A stretch of 9,717 nt of DNA, from the IMG/VR virus record IMGVR_UViG_2695420646_000016; one strand, written 5' to 3'. Of this stretch, positions 730-9,717 are shown piece by piece. Under the pieces are notes generated by a model, which was given only the letters and a program-made list of their open reading frames with translations, did not search any database and was not told the origin of the DNA. Each line of letters starts with the position of its first letter. The stretch's first letter is position 1. This DNA comes from a virus. Lineage: Duplodnaviria; Heunggongvirae; Uroviricota; Caudoviricetes. The position numbers and the translations under genes are program-made.

Positions 730-3700
730 ATGGGTAAAGGCAGCAGTAAGGGGCATACCCCGCGCGAAGCGAAGGACAACCTGAAGTCCACGCAGTTGCT
801 GAGTGTGATCGATGCCATCAGCGAAGGGCCGGTTGAAGGTCCGGTGGATGGATTAAAAAGCGTGCTGCTGAACAGTACGCCGGTGCTGGACAGTGAGGGG
901 AATACCAATATATCCGGCGTCACGGTGGTGTTCCGGGCCGGTGAGCAGGAGCAGACACCGCCGGAGGGATTTGAATCATCCGGCTCCGAGACGGTGCTGG
1001 GTACGGAAGTGAAGTACGACACGCCGATTACCCGGACCATCACGTCGGCAAACATCGACCGTCTGCGCTTTACCTTCGGTGTGCAGGCACTGGTGGAAAC
1101 CACCTCAAAGGGGGACCGGAATCCGTCGGAAGTCCGCCTGCTGGTTCAGATACAGCGTAATGGTGGCTGGGTGACGGAAAAAGACATCACCATTAAAGGC
1201 AAAACCACCTCGCAGTATCTGGCCTCGGTGGTGGTGGGTAACCTGCCGCCGCGCCCGTTCAATATCCGGATGCGCAGGATGACGCCGGACAGCACCACAG
1301 ACCAGCTGCAGAACAAAACGCTCTGGTCGTCATACACCGAAATCATCGATGTGAAACAGTGCTACCCGAACACGGCACTGGTCGGCGTACAGGTGGATTC
1401 GGAGCAGTTCGGCAGCCAGCAGGTGAGCCGTAATTATCATCTGCGCGGGCGTATTCTGCAGGTGCCGTCGAACTATAACCCGCAGACTCGGCAATACAGC
1501 GGTATCTGGGACGGAACGTTTAAGCCAGCATACAGCAATAACATGGCCTGGTGTCTGTGGGATATGCTGACCCATCCACGCTACGGCATGGGGAAACGTC
1601 TTGGTGCGGCGGATGTGGACAAATGGGCGCTGTATGTCATCGGCCAGTACTGCGACCAGTCAGTGCCGGACGGCTTTGGCGGCACGGAGCCGCGCATCAC
1701 CTGTAATGCGTACCTGACCACACAGCGCAAGGCGTGGGATGTGCTCAGTGATTTCTGCTCGGCGATGCGCTGTATGCCGGTATGGAACGGGCAGACGCTG
1801 ACGTTCGTGCAGGACCGACCATCAGATAAGGTGTGGACCTATAACCGCAGTAATGTGGTGATGCCGGATGATGGCGCGCCGTTCCGCTACAGCTTCAGCG
1901 CCCTGAAGGACCGCCATAATGCCGTTGAGGTGAACTGGATTGACCCGAACAACGGCTGGGAGACGGCGACAGAGCTTGTTGAAGATACGCAGGCCATTGC
2001 CCGTTACGGTCGTAACGTCACGAAGATGGATGCCTTTGGCTGTACCAGCCGGGGGCAGGCGCACCGCGCCGGGCTGTGGCTGATTAAAACGGAACTGCTG
2101 GAAACGCAGACCGTGGACTTCAGCGTGGGTGCGGAAGGGCTTCGCCATGTACCGGGGGATGTCATTGAAATCTGCGATGATGACTATGCGGGTATCAGCA
2201 TCGGCGGGCGCGTGCTGGCGGTGAACAGCCAGACCCGGACGCTGACGCTCGACCGTGAAATCACGCTGCCATCCTCCGGTACCACGCTGATAAGCCTGGT
2301 TGACGGAAGTGGCAATCCGGTCAGCGTGGAGGTCCAGTCCGTCACCGACGGCGTGAAGGTAAAAGTGAGCCGTGTTCCTGACGGCGTTGCCGGATACAGC
2401 GTGTGGGGGCTGAAGCTGCCGACGCTGCGCCAGCGCCTGTTCCGCTGCGTGAGTATCCGTGAGAACGATGACGGCACGTATGCCATCACCGCCGTGCAGC
2501 ATGTACCGGAAAAAGAGGCCATCGTGGATAACGGGGCGCACTTTGACGGCGACCAGAGCGGCACGGTGAATGGTGTCACGCCGCCAGCGGTGCAGCACCT
2601 GGCCGCAGAAGTCACTGCAGACAGCGGGGAATATCAGGTGCTGGCGCGATGGGACACACCGAAGGTGGTGAAGGGCGTGAGCTTCCTGCTCCGTCTGACC
2701 GTAACAGCGGACGACGGCAGTGAGCGGCTGGTCAGCACGGCCCGGACGACGGAAACCACATACCGCTTCAGGCAACTGGCGCTGGGGCGTTACACGCTGA
2801 CGGTCCGGGCGGTAAATGCGTGGGGGCAGCAGGGCGATCCGGCATCGGTATCGTTCCGGATTGCGGCACCGGCAGCGCCTGTCACTATTGAACTGATACC
2901 AGGGTATTTTCAGATAACAGCGGTCCCGAAACTGGCTGTATATGACCCGACGGTGCAGTTTGAGTTCTGGTTCTCGGAAAAGCGGATTATCGATATCAGG
3001 CAGGTTGAAACCAGCGCGCGTTATCTTGGTACGGCGCTGTACTGGATAGCCGCCAGTAGCAATATTAAGCCGGGTTATGATTATTACTTTTATATCCGCA
3101 GCGTGAACACCGTTGGTAAATCGGCATTTGTGGAGGCCGTTGGTCGGGCGAGCGATGATGCGGAAGGTTATCTGAATTTTTATAAAGGGTTGATCAATAA
3201 AACGCATCTCGGCAAGGAACTGCTGGAAAACTTTGAGCTGACGGAAGATAACGCCAGCAAACTGGAGGAGTTTTCGAAAGAGTGGAAGGACGCCAACGAT
3301 AAATGGAATGCCATGTGGGGCGTCAAAATTGAGCAGACCAAAGACGGCAAACATTATGTCGCGGGGCTTGGCCTCAGCATGGAGGATACGGAGGAAGGCA
3401 AACTGAGCCAGTTCCTGGTTGCCGCTAACCGTATCGCGTTTATTGACCCGGCAAACGGGAATGAAACGCCGATGTTTGTGGCGCAGGGCAACCAGATATT
3501 CATGAACGACGTGTTCCTGAAGCGCCTGACAGCCCCCACTATTACCAGCGGTGGCAGTCCTCCGGTATTTTCCCTGACATCAGACGGAAAGCTGACCGCT
3601 AAAAATGCGGATATCAGTGGTAGTGTGAATGCGAACTCAGGAACGCTCAACAATGTCACGATTAACCAGAACTGTACGATTAAGGGCATGCTGGAGGCGA

Positions 3701-4143
3701 CTCAGGTCAGAGGTGACTTCGTTAAAGCTGTATCCAAATCATTTCCGAAACAGGCTGGTACGTGGGGTAACACGGAAACACCAAACGGGACGGTTACAGT
3801 CACCATCAGCGATGATCATAACTTTGACCGTCAAATCATTATTCCGCCCATTATCTTTAACGGAATAGCGTATAGCGATCCGGGAAGTGGTAATAACCCG
3901 GGAGGTACAAGATACACGGGTTATGGTTTTGAAGTTCGCAAAAACGGTGTATTAATCGCATCCAGAGAAACTAAAGGGGCCATTCCCGGTAGCTACAGTG
4001 CGGTTATTGATATGCCGAGTGGCAGGGGAAGCGTCACTCTGGAGTTTAAGGTTTTCCATAAAGGCAATCAGTGGGCAGGTAATATCACCGACTGTACGGT
4101 GATTGTGACCAAAAAAGCCGCTTCCGGCATCAGTATTCGTTGA
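730..4143 (+). CDS. J: Host specificity protein J (central tail fibre / tail tip), 1137 aa
   Basis: Long ORF with ATG at 730 preceded by GGAG at 718-721. N-terminus [34 protein letters not shown]... and most of the length match lambda gpJ as I recall it. The last ~150 aa differ from lambda J and the DNA becomes more AT-rich. Stop TGA at 4141-4143. Confidence 0.95.
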
Positions 4144-4164
4144 AATTGTTATAACCCATATAAG

Positions 4165-4188
4165 GGCACCAGAAATGGTGCCTTTTTT
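4165..4188 (+). terminator. Rho-independent terminator-like hairpin downstream of J
   Basis: ggcacc (4165-4170), loop agaaat, ggtgcc (4177-4182), followed by tttttt (4183-4188). Confidence 0.6.
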
Positions 4189-4212
4189 ATTGCAGAAAAG
4201 CGAGAGGTAATT

Positions 4213-4812
4213 ATGCGTAAACTTTATGCCGCCATTTTGTCCGCAGCCATTTGTCTGGCCGTATCCGGTGCGCCTGCATGGGCGTCTGAACATCAGTCCA
4301 CGCTGAGCGCGGGGTATCTTCATGCCCGGACGAACGTTCCCGGCAGTGATGATCTGAACGGGATTAACGTGAAATACCGTTATGAGTTTACGGACACACT
4401 GGGGCTGGTGACGTCATTCAGCTATGCAGGAGACAAGAATCGCCAGCTTACCCGTTACAGCGATACCCGCTGGCATGAAGATTCCGTGCGTAACCGCTGG
4501 TTCAGCGTGATGGTGGGGCCGTCTGTGCGCGTGAATGAATGGTTCAGCGCGTATGCGATGGCGGGTATGGCTTACAGCCGTGTGTCGACTTTCTCCGGGG
4601 ATTATCTCCGCGTAACTGACAACAAGGGGAAAACGCACGACGTGCTGACCGGAAGTGATGACGGTCGCCACAGCAACACGTCTCTGGCGTGGGGAGCTGG
4701 CGTGCAGTTTAACCCGACCGAATCCGTGGCCATTGATATTGCTTATGAAGGCTCCGGCAGTGGCGACTGGCGCACTGACGGTTTCATCGTGGGTGTCGGT
4801 TATAAGTTCTGA
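4213..4812 (+). CDS. lom: Outer membrane protein Lom (Ail/Lom family beta-barrel; lysogenic-conversion moron), 199 aa
   Basis: SD gagagg at 4202-4207, ATG at 4213. Signal-peptide-like N-terminus [24 protein letters not shown] followed by SEHQ. Alternating aromatic/hydrophobic beta-strand pattern and C-terminal ...GVGYKF typical of outer-membrane barrels. Sequence matches lambda Lom as recalled. Confidence 0.9.
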
Positions 4813-4838
4813 TTAGCCAGGTAACACAGTGTTATGAC

Positions 4839-4866
4839 AGCCCGCCGGTTCAGGCGGGCTTTTTTG
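4839..4866 (+). terminator. Rho-independent terminator downstream of lom
   Basis: agcccgcc (4839-4846), loop ggttca, ggcgggct (4853-4860), followed by tttttt. Confidence 0.7.
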
Positions 4867-4876
4867 TGGGGTGAAT

Positions 4877-7810
4877 ATGGCAGTAAAGATTTCAGGTGTA
4901 CTGAAAGACGGCACAGGAAAACCGGTACAGAACTGCACAATCCAGCTGAAAGCAAAACGTAACAGCACCACGGTGGTGGTGAACACGCTGGCCTCAGAAA
5001 ATCCGGATGAAGCCGGGCGTTACAGCATGGACGTTGAGTACGGGCAGTACAGCGTTATTCTGTTGGTGGAAGGATTCCCGCCGTCACATGCCGGGACCAT
5101 CACCGTGTATGAAGATTCTCAACCCGGTACGCTGAATGATTTTCTCGGTGCCATGACGGAGGATGATGCCCGTCCGGAGGCACTGCGCCGTTTTGAACAG
5201 ATGGTGGAAGAGGTGGCGCGTAACGCGTCCGCAGTGGCACAGAACACGGCAGCCGCGAAGAAGTCAGCCAGTGATGCCAGCACATCTGCCAGTGAGGCGG
5301 CAACCCATGCGACTGATGCTGCAGACTCAGCACGCGCAGCCAGCACGTCAGCCGGACAGGCCGCGACGTCGGCTCAGGAGGCTTTTTCCAGCGCAGGAAC
5401 GGCATCAGCAAAAGCCTCTGAGGCATCAAAAAGTGCTGCCGCTGCAGAGTCCTCAAAAAGCGCGGCGGCTACCAGTGCCGATGCGGCGAAAACGTCAGAA
5501 ACGAATGCGGCAGCGTCACAACAATCAGCAGCCACTTCTGCATCCACCGCGACCACGAAAGCGTCAGAAGCTGCCTCCTCAGCCCGGGATGCGTCGGCTT
5601 CAAAAGAGGCGGCAAAATCATCAGAAACGAACGCATCATCAAGCGCCAGTAGTGCCGCTTCCTCGGCAACGGCGGCAGGAAATTCCGCGAAGGCGGCAAA
5701 GACGTCTGAGACAAACGCTAAGTCCTCTGAAACGGCAGCGGAACAGAGTGCCTCAGCTGCGGCAGGCTCAAAAACAGCGGCTGCATCATCTGCCAGTGCC
5801 GCGTCAACAAGTGCCGGGCAGGCCTCAGCCAGTGCCACCGCCGCCGGAAAATCGGCAGAAAGTGCTGCATCGTCCGCTTCAACAGCCACAACGAAGGCTG
5901 GCGAAGCCGCTGTACAGGCCAGCGCAGCAGCGAGGTCTGCTTCCGCAGCGAAGACATCCGAGACGAACGCGAAAGCGTCGGAAACCAGCGCAGAATCCTC
6001 AAAAACGGCTGCCGCATCGTCCGCCAGTTCGGCGGCGTCATCGGCATCATCTGCGTCTGCTTCAAAAGATGAGGCGACCAGACAGGCGTCAGCAGCAAAG
6101 GGCAGCGCCACGACGGCATCCACGAAGGCGACAGAGGCAGCTGGCAGTGCGACGGCGGCAGCTCAGAGCAAAAGTACGGCGGAATCCGCGGCAACGCGCG
6201 CCGAGACAGCGGCAAAACGGGCAGAGGATATTGCATCCGCCGTGGCGCTTGAGGATGCGAGCACGACGAAAAAGGGGATAGTACAGCTCAGCAGTGCGAC
6301 TAACAGCACTTCCGAGTCACTGGCGGCAACGCCAAAAGCCGTTAAGGCCGCGTATGAGCTGGCTAACGGGAAATACACCGCACAGGATGCAACGACAGCA
6401 CAGAAAGGGATAGTTCAGCTTAGCAACGCGACCAACAGCACATCTGAAATGCTGGCGGCAACGCCAAAGTCGGTAAAGACAGCCTATGACCTTGCTAACG
6501 GGAAATATACTGCTCAGGACGCTACGACAGCACAAAAAGGAATTGTCCAGCTCAGTAGTGCAACCAACAGCGCATCTGAAACGCTTGCCGCGACACCGAA
6601 AGCAGTGAAAGCAGCTAATGATAATGCGAATGGTCGGGTACCTTCTGCCCGTAAGGTGAATGGTAAGGCGCTTTCAGCGGATATAACACTGACGCCGAAA
6701 GATATTGGTACGCTTAACTCAACAACAATGTCGTTCAGCGGTGGTGCTGGTTGGTTCAAATTAGCAACGGTAACCATGCCACAGGCGAGTTCTGTTGTTT
6801 CAATTACGTTGATTGGTGGCGCGGGATTTAACGTGGGGTCACCTCAACAGGCAGGTATATCTGAACTTGTTTTGCGTGCAGGTAATGGTAATCCGAAGGG
6901 GATTACTGGTGCTTTATGGCAGCGCACATCGACAGGGTTTACAAATTTTGCCTGGGTCAATACATCTGGTGATACTTACGATATTTACGTTGCAATCGGA
7001 AATTATGCGACTGGTGTAAATATTCAATGGGATTATACCAGTAATGCCAGCGTGACGATTCATACGTCACCAGCATATTCTGCTAATAAGCCGGAAGGGT
7101 TAACGGACGGTACAGTTTATTCACTCTATACGCCATCAGAGCAGTTTTATCCGCCTGGCGCACCAATCCCGTGGCCATCGGATACCGTTCCGTCTGGTTA
7201 TGCCCTGATGCAGGGGCAGACTTTTGACAAATCTGCCTACCCGAAACTTGCAGCCGCTTATCCGTCAGGCGTGATCCCTGATATGCGTGGCTGGACGATT
7301 AAGGGCAAACCTGCCAGTGGTCGTGCCGTATTGTCTCAGGAACAGGACGGCATTAAATCGCACGCCCACAGCGCCAGTGCATCCAGTACGGATTTGGGGA
7401 CGAAAACCACGTCGTCGTTTGATTATGGTACTAAGTCTTCAAATGCCACTGGTGACCATAACCACAGCCGAGGCACTATGGAAATTACCGGTACTCTCGG
7501 TTACTTCAGAAGTGATAGCGGTAATTTCTATACAGCAAGTGGAGCATTTACACTGGGTGGCTCTGCGCCAGCCCATGGATTTACGGGCTCTCAATTTACT
7601 TATGGTGTTCCTGTAAACTTTAACGCTTCCAGAACCTGGTCTGGTGCCACAAGCACTACAGGTAACCATGCGCACTCTGTTCCAATTGGTGCTCATGCGC
7701 ACTCCGTTGCGATTGGTTCACATGGACACACCATCACCGTTAACGCTGCTGGTAACGCGGAAAACACCGTCAAAAACATCGCATTTAACTATATTGTGAG
7801 GCTTGCATAA
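4877..7810 (+). CDS. stf: Side tail fibre protein Stf, about 977 aa, intact single ORF
   Basis: N-terminus [26 protein letters not shown]... matches lambda Stf. The track starts at GTG 4871, but ATG 4877 reproduces the lambda start and is preferred. Contains an Ala/Ser-rich shaft, 3 tandem 44-aa repeats and a C-terminal HxH-rich domain ending ...[18 protein letters not shown]. Stop TAA at 7808-7810 overlaps the tfa ATG. Confidence 0.9.
5230..6250 (+). repeat. Compositionally biased Ala/Ser/Thr-rich low-complexity region of Stf, with degenerate internal repeats
   Basis: About 340 codons dominated by GCN/TCN/ACN. Recurrent modules such as AKTSETNA(A/K)(A/S)SE at roughly 5490, 5617, 5700 and 5950. 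Both alternative frames and the minus strand stay open across it (track ORFs 5163..6281 and 5374..6123), a typical artefact of such bias. Confidence 0.75.
6263..6630 (+). repeat. Three tandem 132-bp (44-aa) repeats inside stf (phage tail-fibre repeat module)
   Basis: Units begin near 6263, 6395 and 6527: T(T/A)(K/Q)KGIVQLS(S/N)ATNS(T/A)SE(S/M/T)LAATPK(A/S)VK(A/T)AY(E/D)[11 protein letters not shown]. The third unit diverges after ...AANDNANG. The conserved Gly codon recurs at 6275, 6407 and 6539, giving an exact 132-nt period. Confidence 0.85.
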
Positions 7811-8394
7811 TGGCATTCAGAATGAGTGAACAAGCACGGACCATAAAAATTTATAATCTGCTGGCCGGAACTAATGAATTTATTGGTGAAGGTGACGCAT
7901 ATATTCCGCCTCATACAGGTCTGCCAGCAAACAGTACCGATATTGCACCGCCAGATATTCCGGCTGGCTTTGTGGCTGTTTTCAACAGTGATGAGGCATC
8001 GTGGCATCTCGTTGAAGATCATCGGGGTAAAACGGTTTATGACGTAGCTTCCGGCGACGCGTTATTTATTTCTGAACTCGGCTTATTACCGGAAAATGTT
8101 ACCTGGTTATCGCCGGAAGGGGAGTTTCAGAAGTGGAACGGCACAACCTGGGTGAAAGATGCAGAAGCAGAAAAACTGTTCCGGATCCGGGAGGCGGAAG
8201 AAACAAAAAACAACCTGATGCAGGTAGCCAGTGAGCATATTGCGCCGCTTCAGGATGCTGCAGATCTGGAAATTGCAACGGAGGAAGAAACCTCATTGCT
8301 GGAAGCCTGGAAAAAGTATCGGGTGTTGCTGAACCGTGTTGATACATCAACTGCACCTGATATTGAGTGGCCTACGAACCCTGTCAGGGAGTAA
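7810..8394 (+). CDS. tfa: Tail fibre assembly protein Tfa (tail-fibre chaperone), 194 aa
   Basis: ATG at 7810 overlaps the stf stop (taATGg), implying translational coupling. SD gtgagg at 7796-7801. N-terminus [53 protein letters not shown] matches lambda Tfa as recalled. Stop TAA at 8392-8394. Confidence 0.92.
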
Positions 8395-8448: not shown

Positions 8449-9117
8449 CTATTTTTTCCCTGAAGCGGAAAACATTACTACAGTACCTTGAACCTTGGTT
8501 TTAACATTCTCGAAATGCTCTGAGAGTATATGTGTTAAGCCTTCTTCGGAATCTTTTGTGTTTGAAAAGATGCCTTTCTGATTGTAAATGCGCATCAGTT
8601 TTTGACCGAAGCTATTGTGCACAACTCCATCGCCAAGAATTGTGGCTCCGTATAGAGTTCCATCGTCAGTTAAGGCCTGCGCCGCATTGCGTATTACACA
8701 GCTTTTTGTAGATATATTTCCAGGCAGGCAGTGAAGAAGGTAAAACATGGAAATGGAATCAAATTGACCATGTAACGCCGCGGGATAAGGTTCAAAAACA
8801 TCATGGCTAATTTTATGTTTAATTTTTGATTCCCCAGCCCTTGTAGATGCCGCGTTCAGGCTAGCTTCGTTCAAATCCATTAAAGATATCAGACTACTCT
8901 CAGGTACGTGAGTAAGGTAAAACCCAGTTCCAACACCAATATCCAGATGGTTGTTACCTACATGTTCCAGAAAGTGTGGAAGAAGGTGTTCCTTTGTAGG
9001 ACATCCCCATGCAAGCCGATTTGATACTCCCAAAACCCACCAGTCATAAAGCTTTAGGGTAAGTGGTGTGTAAATTTTAGCCCCATCATCTGTGTTTTTT
9101 TTCATTGATTTCACCAT
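8449..9117 (-). CDS. Class I (Rossmann-fold) SAM-dependent methyltransferase, substrate unknown; AT-rich moron
   Basis: 222-aa ORF with stop TAG at 8449-8451. SAM-binding motif I LDIGVGTGF (hh-D-h-G-x-G-x-G), acidic post-I residue in ISLMDLNE, motif II-like QFDSISMFYLLHCLP, motif III-like LTDDGTLYG. About 38% GC versus about 55-65% in the tail genes. The start may be the second Met (9105), which has a GGTGA SD 5 nt upstream; Met at 9117 has none. Confidence 0.75.
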   Translation of the reverse strand: MVKSMKKNTDDGAKIYTPLTLKLYDWWVLGVSNRLAWGCPTKEHLLPHFLEHVGNNHLDIGVGTGFYLTHVPESSLISLMDLNEASLNAASTRAGESKIKHKISHDVFEPYPAALHGQFDSISMFYLLHCLPGNISTKSCVIRNAAQALTDDGTLYGATILGDGVVHNSFGQKLMRIYNQKGIFSNTKDSEEGLTHILSEHFENVKTKVQGTVVMFSASGKK

Positions 9118-9282
9118 GTTATAGTTTTATTTGTGAATTAAATCAATTATGGCGATGAATTACAAGGGGTTAAATGCTGCCGCAGCATAGCGATATTGAA
9201 ATAGCCTGGTATGCTTCGATACAGCAGGAGCCGAATGGCTGGAAGACCGTCACCACACAGTTCTACATCCAGGAATTCAGTG

Positions 9283-9432
9283 CCACTGCAGGATGCTGTA
9301 GATCTGGAAATCGCAACGGAGGAAGAAAGATCGTTGCTGGAGGCATGGAATAAATATCGGGTATTGTTGAATCGTGTTGATACATCAACTGCACCTGATA
9401 TTGAGTGGCCTGCAAATCCTGTCAGGGAGTAA
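9283..9432 (+). pseudogene. Tail fibre assembly protein C-terminal fragment (tfa remnant), direct-repeat copy B
   Basis: Encodes ...[49 protein letters not shown], matching the last ~49 aa of the Tfa at 7810-8394. No Tfa N-terminal domain; the upstream part of track ORF 9211..9432 has no Tfa similarity. Same stop context gagtaatcattggg. Confidence 0.75.
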
Positions 9433-9480
9433 TCATTGGGATTATGCCGCAGACACGTCGTATGCAGGAACGTGCTGCGG
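9283..9480 (+). repeat. Direct repeat copy B: tfa 3' end plus degenerate copy of the hairpin
   Basis: Aligns to 8245-8441. The hairpin arms are imperfect here (ccgcagacacgtcg ... aacgtgctgcgg). Confidence 0.85.
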
Positions 9481-9546
9481 CTAGTTTGTGAGCTTTCGAT
9501 AGTGGTTGTTATTTTTGCCCTTATTTGTTCCGGAGGCCATGGTTCA

Positions 9547-9717
9547 ATGGTCCGTCTGCCCCCTGTGGTGATGTCAGCAAAATCAGCCACTGCGCGAACC
9601 ACAATAGCCCGGGAAGATGCTGAAGATCACCAGGTAAAGCTATCAGCGCAGAAACTGGAAGAACTGCTCGCATCAATGGTTAAGGATGAGGTTGATCGCA
9701 ATGATGGGATTTATTGA
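9547..9717 (+). CDS. Hypothetical small protein, 56 aa, function unknown
   Basis: ATG at 9547 preceded by a strong SD GGAGG (9532-9536). Translates as MVRLPPVVMSAKSATARTTIAREDAEDHQVKLSAQKLEELLASMVKDEVDRNDGIY, stop TGA at 9715-9717. Charged, probably helical C-terminal half. I cannot place it in a family from memory. The track's longer 9436 start lies inside repeat copy B and lacks an SD. Confidence 0.4.
   Translation: MVRLPPVVMSAKSATARTTIAREDAEDHQVKLSAQKLEELLASMVKDEVDRNDGIY

Follow-up and report, generated by a model that had tools for sequence, protein, structure and literature searches.

The 9,717-nucleotide (nt) stretch analyzed here (the window), from the Caudoviricetes virus record IMGVR_UViG_2695420646_000016, covers the tail-tip end of a late operon that resembles that of phage lambda. 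Its gene J, which encodes the tip attachment or central tail fibre protein, combines a trunk very close to that of phage lambda with what its alignments identify as the classical 434 host-range type of tip. As this tip matches the 434 allele at 95.5% and 434 attaches to OmpC, the window phage most likely also uses OmpC and not LamB. The features concerned are the following.

730-4143, + strand: J, tip attachment/central tail fibre protein of 1137 amino acids (aa), from the open reading frame (ORF) list, translation, Pfam and BLASTP
730-3540, + strand: lambda-like J trunk (hub, FNIII/Ig domains, helical shaft and most of the beta-prism fibre)
3541-4181, + strand: exchanged cassette (last ~35 shaft codons, receptor-binding domain (RBD), stop codon and start of the J-lom spacer)
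3640-4143, + strand: strongly divergent RBD-coding part (aa ~971-1137), with Ig_GpJ_C at aa 1001-1136, that is, nt 3730-4137
4162-4195, + strand: terminator-like hairpin (4162-4185) and T run after J, from a consensus scan; annotated as a terminator in the 434 record
4213-4812, + strand: lom, encoding a 434-type outer-membrane protein of the Ail/Lom family, 199 aa long (Pfam Ail_Lom, E 2e-119)

A lambda-like trunk ends in a diverged tip

A first-pass annotation of this DNA had read the ORF at 730-4143 as a J close to that of lambda over most of its length but unlike it over the last ~150 aa. The ORF does encode a 1137-aa J, and its translation contains the C-terminal peptide quoted there. Compared with lambda J (J02459), it is 97–98% identical up to about aa 975, with 45–50 matches per 50 residues up to aa ~950 (41/50 at aa 801-850 being the exception), after which the matches fall to 38, 21, 15, and 13 per 50 over aa 951-1137. 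The overall BLASTP identity is 88%, and every gap lies within the last ~130 aa. At the DNA level, most 150-nt bins of the trunk are 92–99% identical to lambda and 434, with 144–151 mismatches over 2811 nt against lambda h434, IdasGreatGrand, and lambda, and at 3640-3650 the match to lambda declines from ~93% to ~50% identity. The Pfam families of J come in the lambda order (Phage-tail_3, FNIII-A_GpJ, Ig_J, Ig_J_second, Phage_Tail_Tip, and Ig_GpJ_C), all six scoring far above their respective cut-offs.

The tip is 37–41% identical to the lambda tip, with four indel sites, where the first-pass annotation had taken more than 90% as the figure that would speak against a distinct C-terminus. By this comparison, it lacks close identity to the LamB-binding lambda RBD and is not of that type. 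The strong divergence is thus confirmed, but the impression of an unrelated end is not, since the tip is still homologous to that of lambda and represents a known allele of the 434 type. Pfam PF12421 (Ig_GpJ_C) matches it with 91 bits against a cut-off of 26.2, over profile positions 1–134 of 135, and a phmmer search of solved structures with the tip alone returned gpJ chains only, namely A8 gpJ (9wca/9wcb, E 5.5e-31, 46–49% identity) and lambda gpJ (8xcj, E 6e-23; 8xcj/8xck/8iyk, E ~1e-22). Judged by these matches, the tip is a diverged homologue of the lambda tip within the same domain family. A single-sequence AlphaFold2 model of the tip is all-beta and of low confidence (mean predicted local distance difference test score (pLDDT) 50.3), its loop assignments being tentative; Foldseek with this model placed the gpJ tips 9wcb, 9wca, 8xck, and 8xcj as the top four (template modelling score ~0.55, root-mean-square deviation ~10 Å).

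The tip is of the 434 type

The last 157 aa were searched by tblastn against 50,697 phage records. The tip is at least 99% identical in 35 of these, including ev099, IdasGreatGrand, and many Stx1a/Stx2c-converting phages, and the tip protein is 100% identical to those of ev099, IdasGreatGrand, and Stx1a/Stx2c phages. Another 39 records match at 90–99%, among them lambda h434 imm21 and mEp460 at 95.5%, and every other match is below 60%. Against the J of 434 (OL657226) and of lambda h434 imm21 (OM418627), whose sequences were reported by Feiss et al. 2022 (PMC9119081), 150 of the 157 aa are identical (95.5%), without gaps. The DNA of 3640-4143 follows the same grouping: it is 100% identical to IdasGreatGrand and 81–100% identical to 434 per 60 nt (91–94% per 150 nt), versus ~50% for lambda and 35–63% for phages of other tip types.

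Receptor of the window phage

A lambda phage whose J has been replaced with the 434 gene binds OmpC, as 434 itself does (PMC3509688 and PMC11101478, on the basis of older genetics). Within the 434 type, adsorption that depends on OmpC and not on LamB is known for 434 and lambda h434 only. Binding of OmpC by a gpJ tip of this fold is seen in structure 9wcb, in which the tip of A8, engineered as an OmpC-using gpJ, is bound to OmpC of E. coli EDL933 (PMC11338833). The J tip type of phi330, 35–40% identical to both 434 and lambda, also uses OmpC (PMC12502783). As to hosts, PhiR26_1, whose tip is 97.5% identical to that of the window, has E. coli K-12 MG1655 as its record host, and IdasGreatGrand, whose tip is identical, has E. 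coli; a literature search found no receptor data for IdasGreatGrand, ev099, or the PhiR phages, and none were found for the Stx1a/Stx2c phages with this tip. The expectation of the first-pass annotation, a probable receptor different from that of lambda, is therefore borne out by the 95.5% identity to the OmpC-using 434 tip, as far as analogy allows.

Several points weigh against a straightforward transfer of the 434 receptor to the window phage. Seven residues differ between the two tips (window to 434: S1004A, Q1008K, A1009V, N1019D, S1049D, R1099G, and W1115R), and the literature search found no experiments on this exact allele. Five of the seven differences lie in four segments rich in indels relative to lambda and A8, the putative receptor-contact loops (post hoc binomial p of about 0.01 for five of seven in ~37 of 157 residues), and the tip model places six of the seven in loops, assignments that a mean pLDDT of 50 leaves tentative. 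Moreover, LamB is the native receptor of the J of phage 21, and one mutation adds OmpC (PMC11336670); the tip of this J shares 81% identity with that of OmpC-binding A8 and 49% with that of lambda. Since LamB (phage 21) and OmpC (A8) thus occur within one tip type, moderate identity is an unsafe guide to the receptor.

The same differences could mean that the fold is of the 434 type and that the seven loop substitutions shift its specificity, either to a subset of OmpC variants (e.g., O157 versus K-12) or to another porin such as OmpF. The exact allele is carried by Stx1a/Stx2c phages, which an Eligo preprint ties to O157; the OmpC-binding gpJ chimeras A8 and 1A2 accept different OmpC variants (PMC11338833), and single J mutations add receptors in both lambda and phage 21 (PMC11336670). 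We nevertheless consider such a shift unlikely. The tip differs from that of 434 by 26.5 synonymous and 8.5 non-synonymous changes, and a non-synonymous to synonymous ratio (dN/dS) of only 0.08 at a synonymous divergence (dS) of 0.29 indicates that the tip protein has been held constant, an argument for a conserved receptor. The seven changes are all substitutions, PhiR26_1 lists K-12 MG1655, and 434 is itself a phage of laboratory E. coli. There is a small chance that this allele, the common natural one, present in gut coliphages as well as in Stx1a/Stx2c phages, accepts OmpC variants other than those of the laboratory 434 allele or binds a further porin; a few loop residues on a freely exchanged cassette would then set the receptor range of lambdoid and Stx phages.

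It is still less probable that the tip binds LamB as that of lambda does. Sequence type and receptor would then be loosely coupled, as the case of LamB-using phage 21, closer to the A8 tip than to the lambda tip, might suggest (PMC11336670). However, the nearest characterised relative, 434, uses OmpC, and the window tip is only 40–42% identical to both known LamB binders. OmpC hence remains the most likely receptor.

How the tip would act can be sketched from the lambda and A8 gpJ structures, from which both the fold details and the trimer-porin mechanism were inferred. At the far end of the central tail fibre, three copies of the RBD would come together, and their bottom loops would enter a trimeric outer-membrane porin, most likely OmpC. 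The lambda tip is an Ig-like domain that inserts four bottom loops into the porin; on binding, the three tips move apart, and a twist that travels up the fibre opens the tail (PMC11101478). Porin binding by the window tip would likewise trigger a fibre rearrangement that opens the tail tube, the signal presumably being transmitted as in lambda because the trunks are 97–98% identical.

The tip lies on an exchangeable cassette

In these comparisons, the tip acts as an exchangeable cassette of ~0.5–0.64 kb between the J shaft and the J-lom spacer plus the 199-aa lom. The 434-type RBD joins the lambda-like trunk where the beta-prism fibre meets the Ig-like tip domain. A run of 641 nt (3541-4181) shows zero differences to IdasGreatGrand, while 151 of 2811 nt (5.4%) differ upstream and 25 of 669 (3.7%) downstream; at ~5% divergence, chance would not be expected to produce such a run (estimated at roughly 0.95^641). 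Identity of this length between diverged flanks indicates that homologous recombination moved the cassette between lambdoid phages recently. DNA identity to lambda falls at ~3640-3650; 434-type variants without a lambda counterpart begin at 3552, and the identical run begins at 3541.

Heavy divergence from lambda extends from ~3640 through lom to ~4710, and the window Lom is 99% identical to that of 434 and 45% identical to the 206-aa Lom of lambda. This ~50% identity over 3650-4710 is misleading, as it is the lambda Lom that is unusual. DNA identity to Turner, PhiR30_1, and Stx2a_JNE122398 stays high as far as ~3650, is 35–63% over 3695-4140, and becomes high again from ~4155; the tips of these three phages are of other types (43–45% identity), and their Lom proteins are 96–99% identical to that of the window. 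Other tip types beside the same 199-aa Lom indicate that the variable unit is the tip alone. A tip and lom co-inherited as one functional module was considered and rejected for this reason. By sequence, the 199-aa lom is instead a conserved recombination arm (the 3′ homology arm) that is not linked to receptor type.

With a second terminator-like hairpin and T run after lom (4839-4870, hairpin 4839-4860), likewise found by the consensus scan and annotated as a terminator in the 434 record, lom would sit between two putative terminators. The scan found two such sites versus 1.2 expected in shuffles, so that a scan match alone is weak evidence. An Rfam scan of 3400-5000 gave no match.

A second mosaic patch inside J

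A second mosaic patch was observed at 2830-3310 (aa ~701-860), covering the second Ig/FNIII domain and the start of the helical shaft. Per 150-nt bin, it is 81–91% identical (83%, 91%, and 81–84%) to lambda, 434, PhiR26_1, and IdasGreatGrand, and its dS against 434, IdasGreatGrand, and PhiR26_1 is 0.43–0.46, versus 0.09–0.15 in the flanks. The best match of aa 701-860 among the 50,697 phage records is 88%, and the best match of 2700-4200 in a complete E. coli genome is 97.9% (strain E2, from poultry). This patch is, on the records compared, the only feature particular to the window J.

Base composition

The first-pass annotation had also described a drop from GC-rich to AT-rich DNA over the divergent end of J. 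The drop is real, with a GC content of 0.600 over 730-2849 and 0.493 over 2850-4143 (chi-square p 1e-9), but it is not located there: the maximum-likelihood change point lies at 2880 (log-likelihood ratio 20.8), at the 5′ edge of the second mosaic patch and ~770 bp upstream of the loss of similarity, and the stretch in between is still 83–93% identical to lambda. Total GC does not differ between 3690-4143 (0.476) and 2850-3689 (0.502; p 0.39), and no second change point in J exceeded the permutation null, leaving no significant total-GC step at 3650-3690. What does change at the divergent part is the GC content of third codon positions (GC3), which falls from 0.60 to 0.46 (p 0.008), and the divergent segment has a lower GC content than its lambda counterpart (0.474 versus 0.551, p 0.02).

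The J tips of nine phages were compared in the same way. The non-lambda tip types examined all have a GC content (0.47–0.51) and a GC3 (0.47–0.54) below those of the 800 nt upstream, where GC3 is 0.60–0.66, and the tip of lambda itself is the exception (GC 0.55, GC3 0.62). Low GC being common to all non-lambda tip types examined, it is not peculiar to the window allele; it could reflect cassettes drawn from one source of lower GC, or codon adaptation that has been relaxed. Composition was also considered as a marker of the tip swap and rejected, the change point at 2880 lying away from the breakpoint.

An AT-richer, divergent end could also be the product of drift in a decaying prophage remnant with no working module. 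Tail-fibre assembly gene fragments at 9211-9717 and the possibility that the window derives from a prophage, the block being present in thousands of E. coli chromosomes, are consistent with this explanation. Yet J, lom, stf, and tfa are intact ORFs, each with a full-length Pfam match, the tip matches that of an isolated phage, IdasGreatGrand, at every base, and its dN/dS of 0.08 speaks for purifying selection. We regard decay as very improbable, and a functional 434-type tip on a lambda-like trunk remains our reading.

Surrounding genes

The remaining features of the window are the following.

37-669: I, an ORF with a matching Pfam family
4871-7810: stf (side tail fibre), 979 aa, Pfam family match
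7810-8394: tfa, Pfam family match
8449-9117, - strand: YbcY-like S-adenosylmethionine (SAM)-methyltransferase gene downstream of tfa (phrog_2132, E 4e-157)
9147-9602, - strand: 151-aa ORF without a family match
9211-9432 and 9436-9717, + strand: two short ORFs, with matches confined to C-terminal regions of tail-fibre assembly and tail-fibre proteins

The gene order I - J - lom - stf - tfa, given by the ORFs and Pfam, is the lambda-type context of gpJ. Three ORFs that overlap this region (3952-4323, - strand; 3354-3689, - strand; and 3629-3868, + strand) have no Pfam match and are treated as spurious. The stf gene is long and intact and contains Phage_fiber_2 repeats and a collar domain; it includes tandem units of 132 bp at 6270-6615 (2.6 copies, 77% matches), and A is in strong excess over T across ~5250-6600 (AT skew 0.34–0.44). 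To judge from their partial matches, the two short ORFs at 9211-9717 look like remnants of a second fibre module.

Distribution and significance

The block 3640-4830, which comprises the J end and lom, is present at a coverage of at least 80% in 1888 of 5426 complete E. coli genomes, about a third, and the best match is at least 99% identical in 403 records. Both the h434 allele and the exchange of the J C-terminus as a module are decades-old findings. The allele, the modular exchange, and the probable receptor are thus established knowledge, and the cassette swap in the window is ordinary and widespread, with no new biology in it; identical tip protein sequences are already in public phage records. 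The practical consequence is for annotation, where a 434-type tip with OmpC as the probable receptor should be assigned in place of the LamB of lambda. Such an assignment bears on predictions of host range, of superinfection, and of how related Stx phages spread, and on the choice of gpJ tips for engineered lambda-based delivery particles.

Comparison with known gpJ proteins

The J of phage 434 is also 1137 aa long, its Lom is 99% identical to that of the window, and its record has a terminator annotated at the same offset after J. Beyond the seven RBD substitutions, the window J differs from it at 28 positions, 19 of which fall in aa 718-844, within the divergent patch. IdasGreatGrand (PP925829), ev099 (LR597635), and the Stx1a/Stx2c phages (LC7278xx) have the same RBD, and the rest of their J differs by ~5% in DNA; in ev099, J is 1165 aa long and has a different shaft segment, with 41–64% identity over 3130-3490.

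The lambda gpJ RBD (PDB 8xcj/8xck; Ge & Wang 2024, PMC11101478) belongs to the same PF12421 family and is likewise C-terminal, after the beta-prism fibre. The two RBDs differ by a loop at aa ~1050-1055 that is 6 aa longer in the window J. While the trunks of the two proteins are nearly the same, the receptor of lambda is LamB and that expected for the window phage is OmpC.

The A8 gpJ chimera (9wca/9wcb; Brodel et al. 2024, PMC11338833) carries an OmpC-using tip and is the best PDB match of the window tip. Its tip is nonetheless of another sequence type, 46–49% identical to that of the window, 100% identical to that of phage Turner, and 81% identical to that of phage 21. With 46% identity to A8 and 42% to phage 21, the window tip does not appear to belong to the A8/phage 21 type of RBD. 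As the A8 and window tips are of different sequence types, their contacts with OmpC need not be shared.

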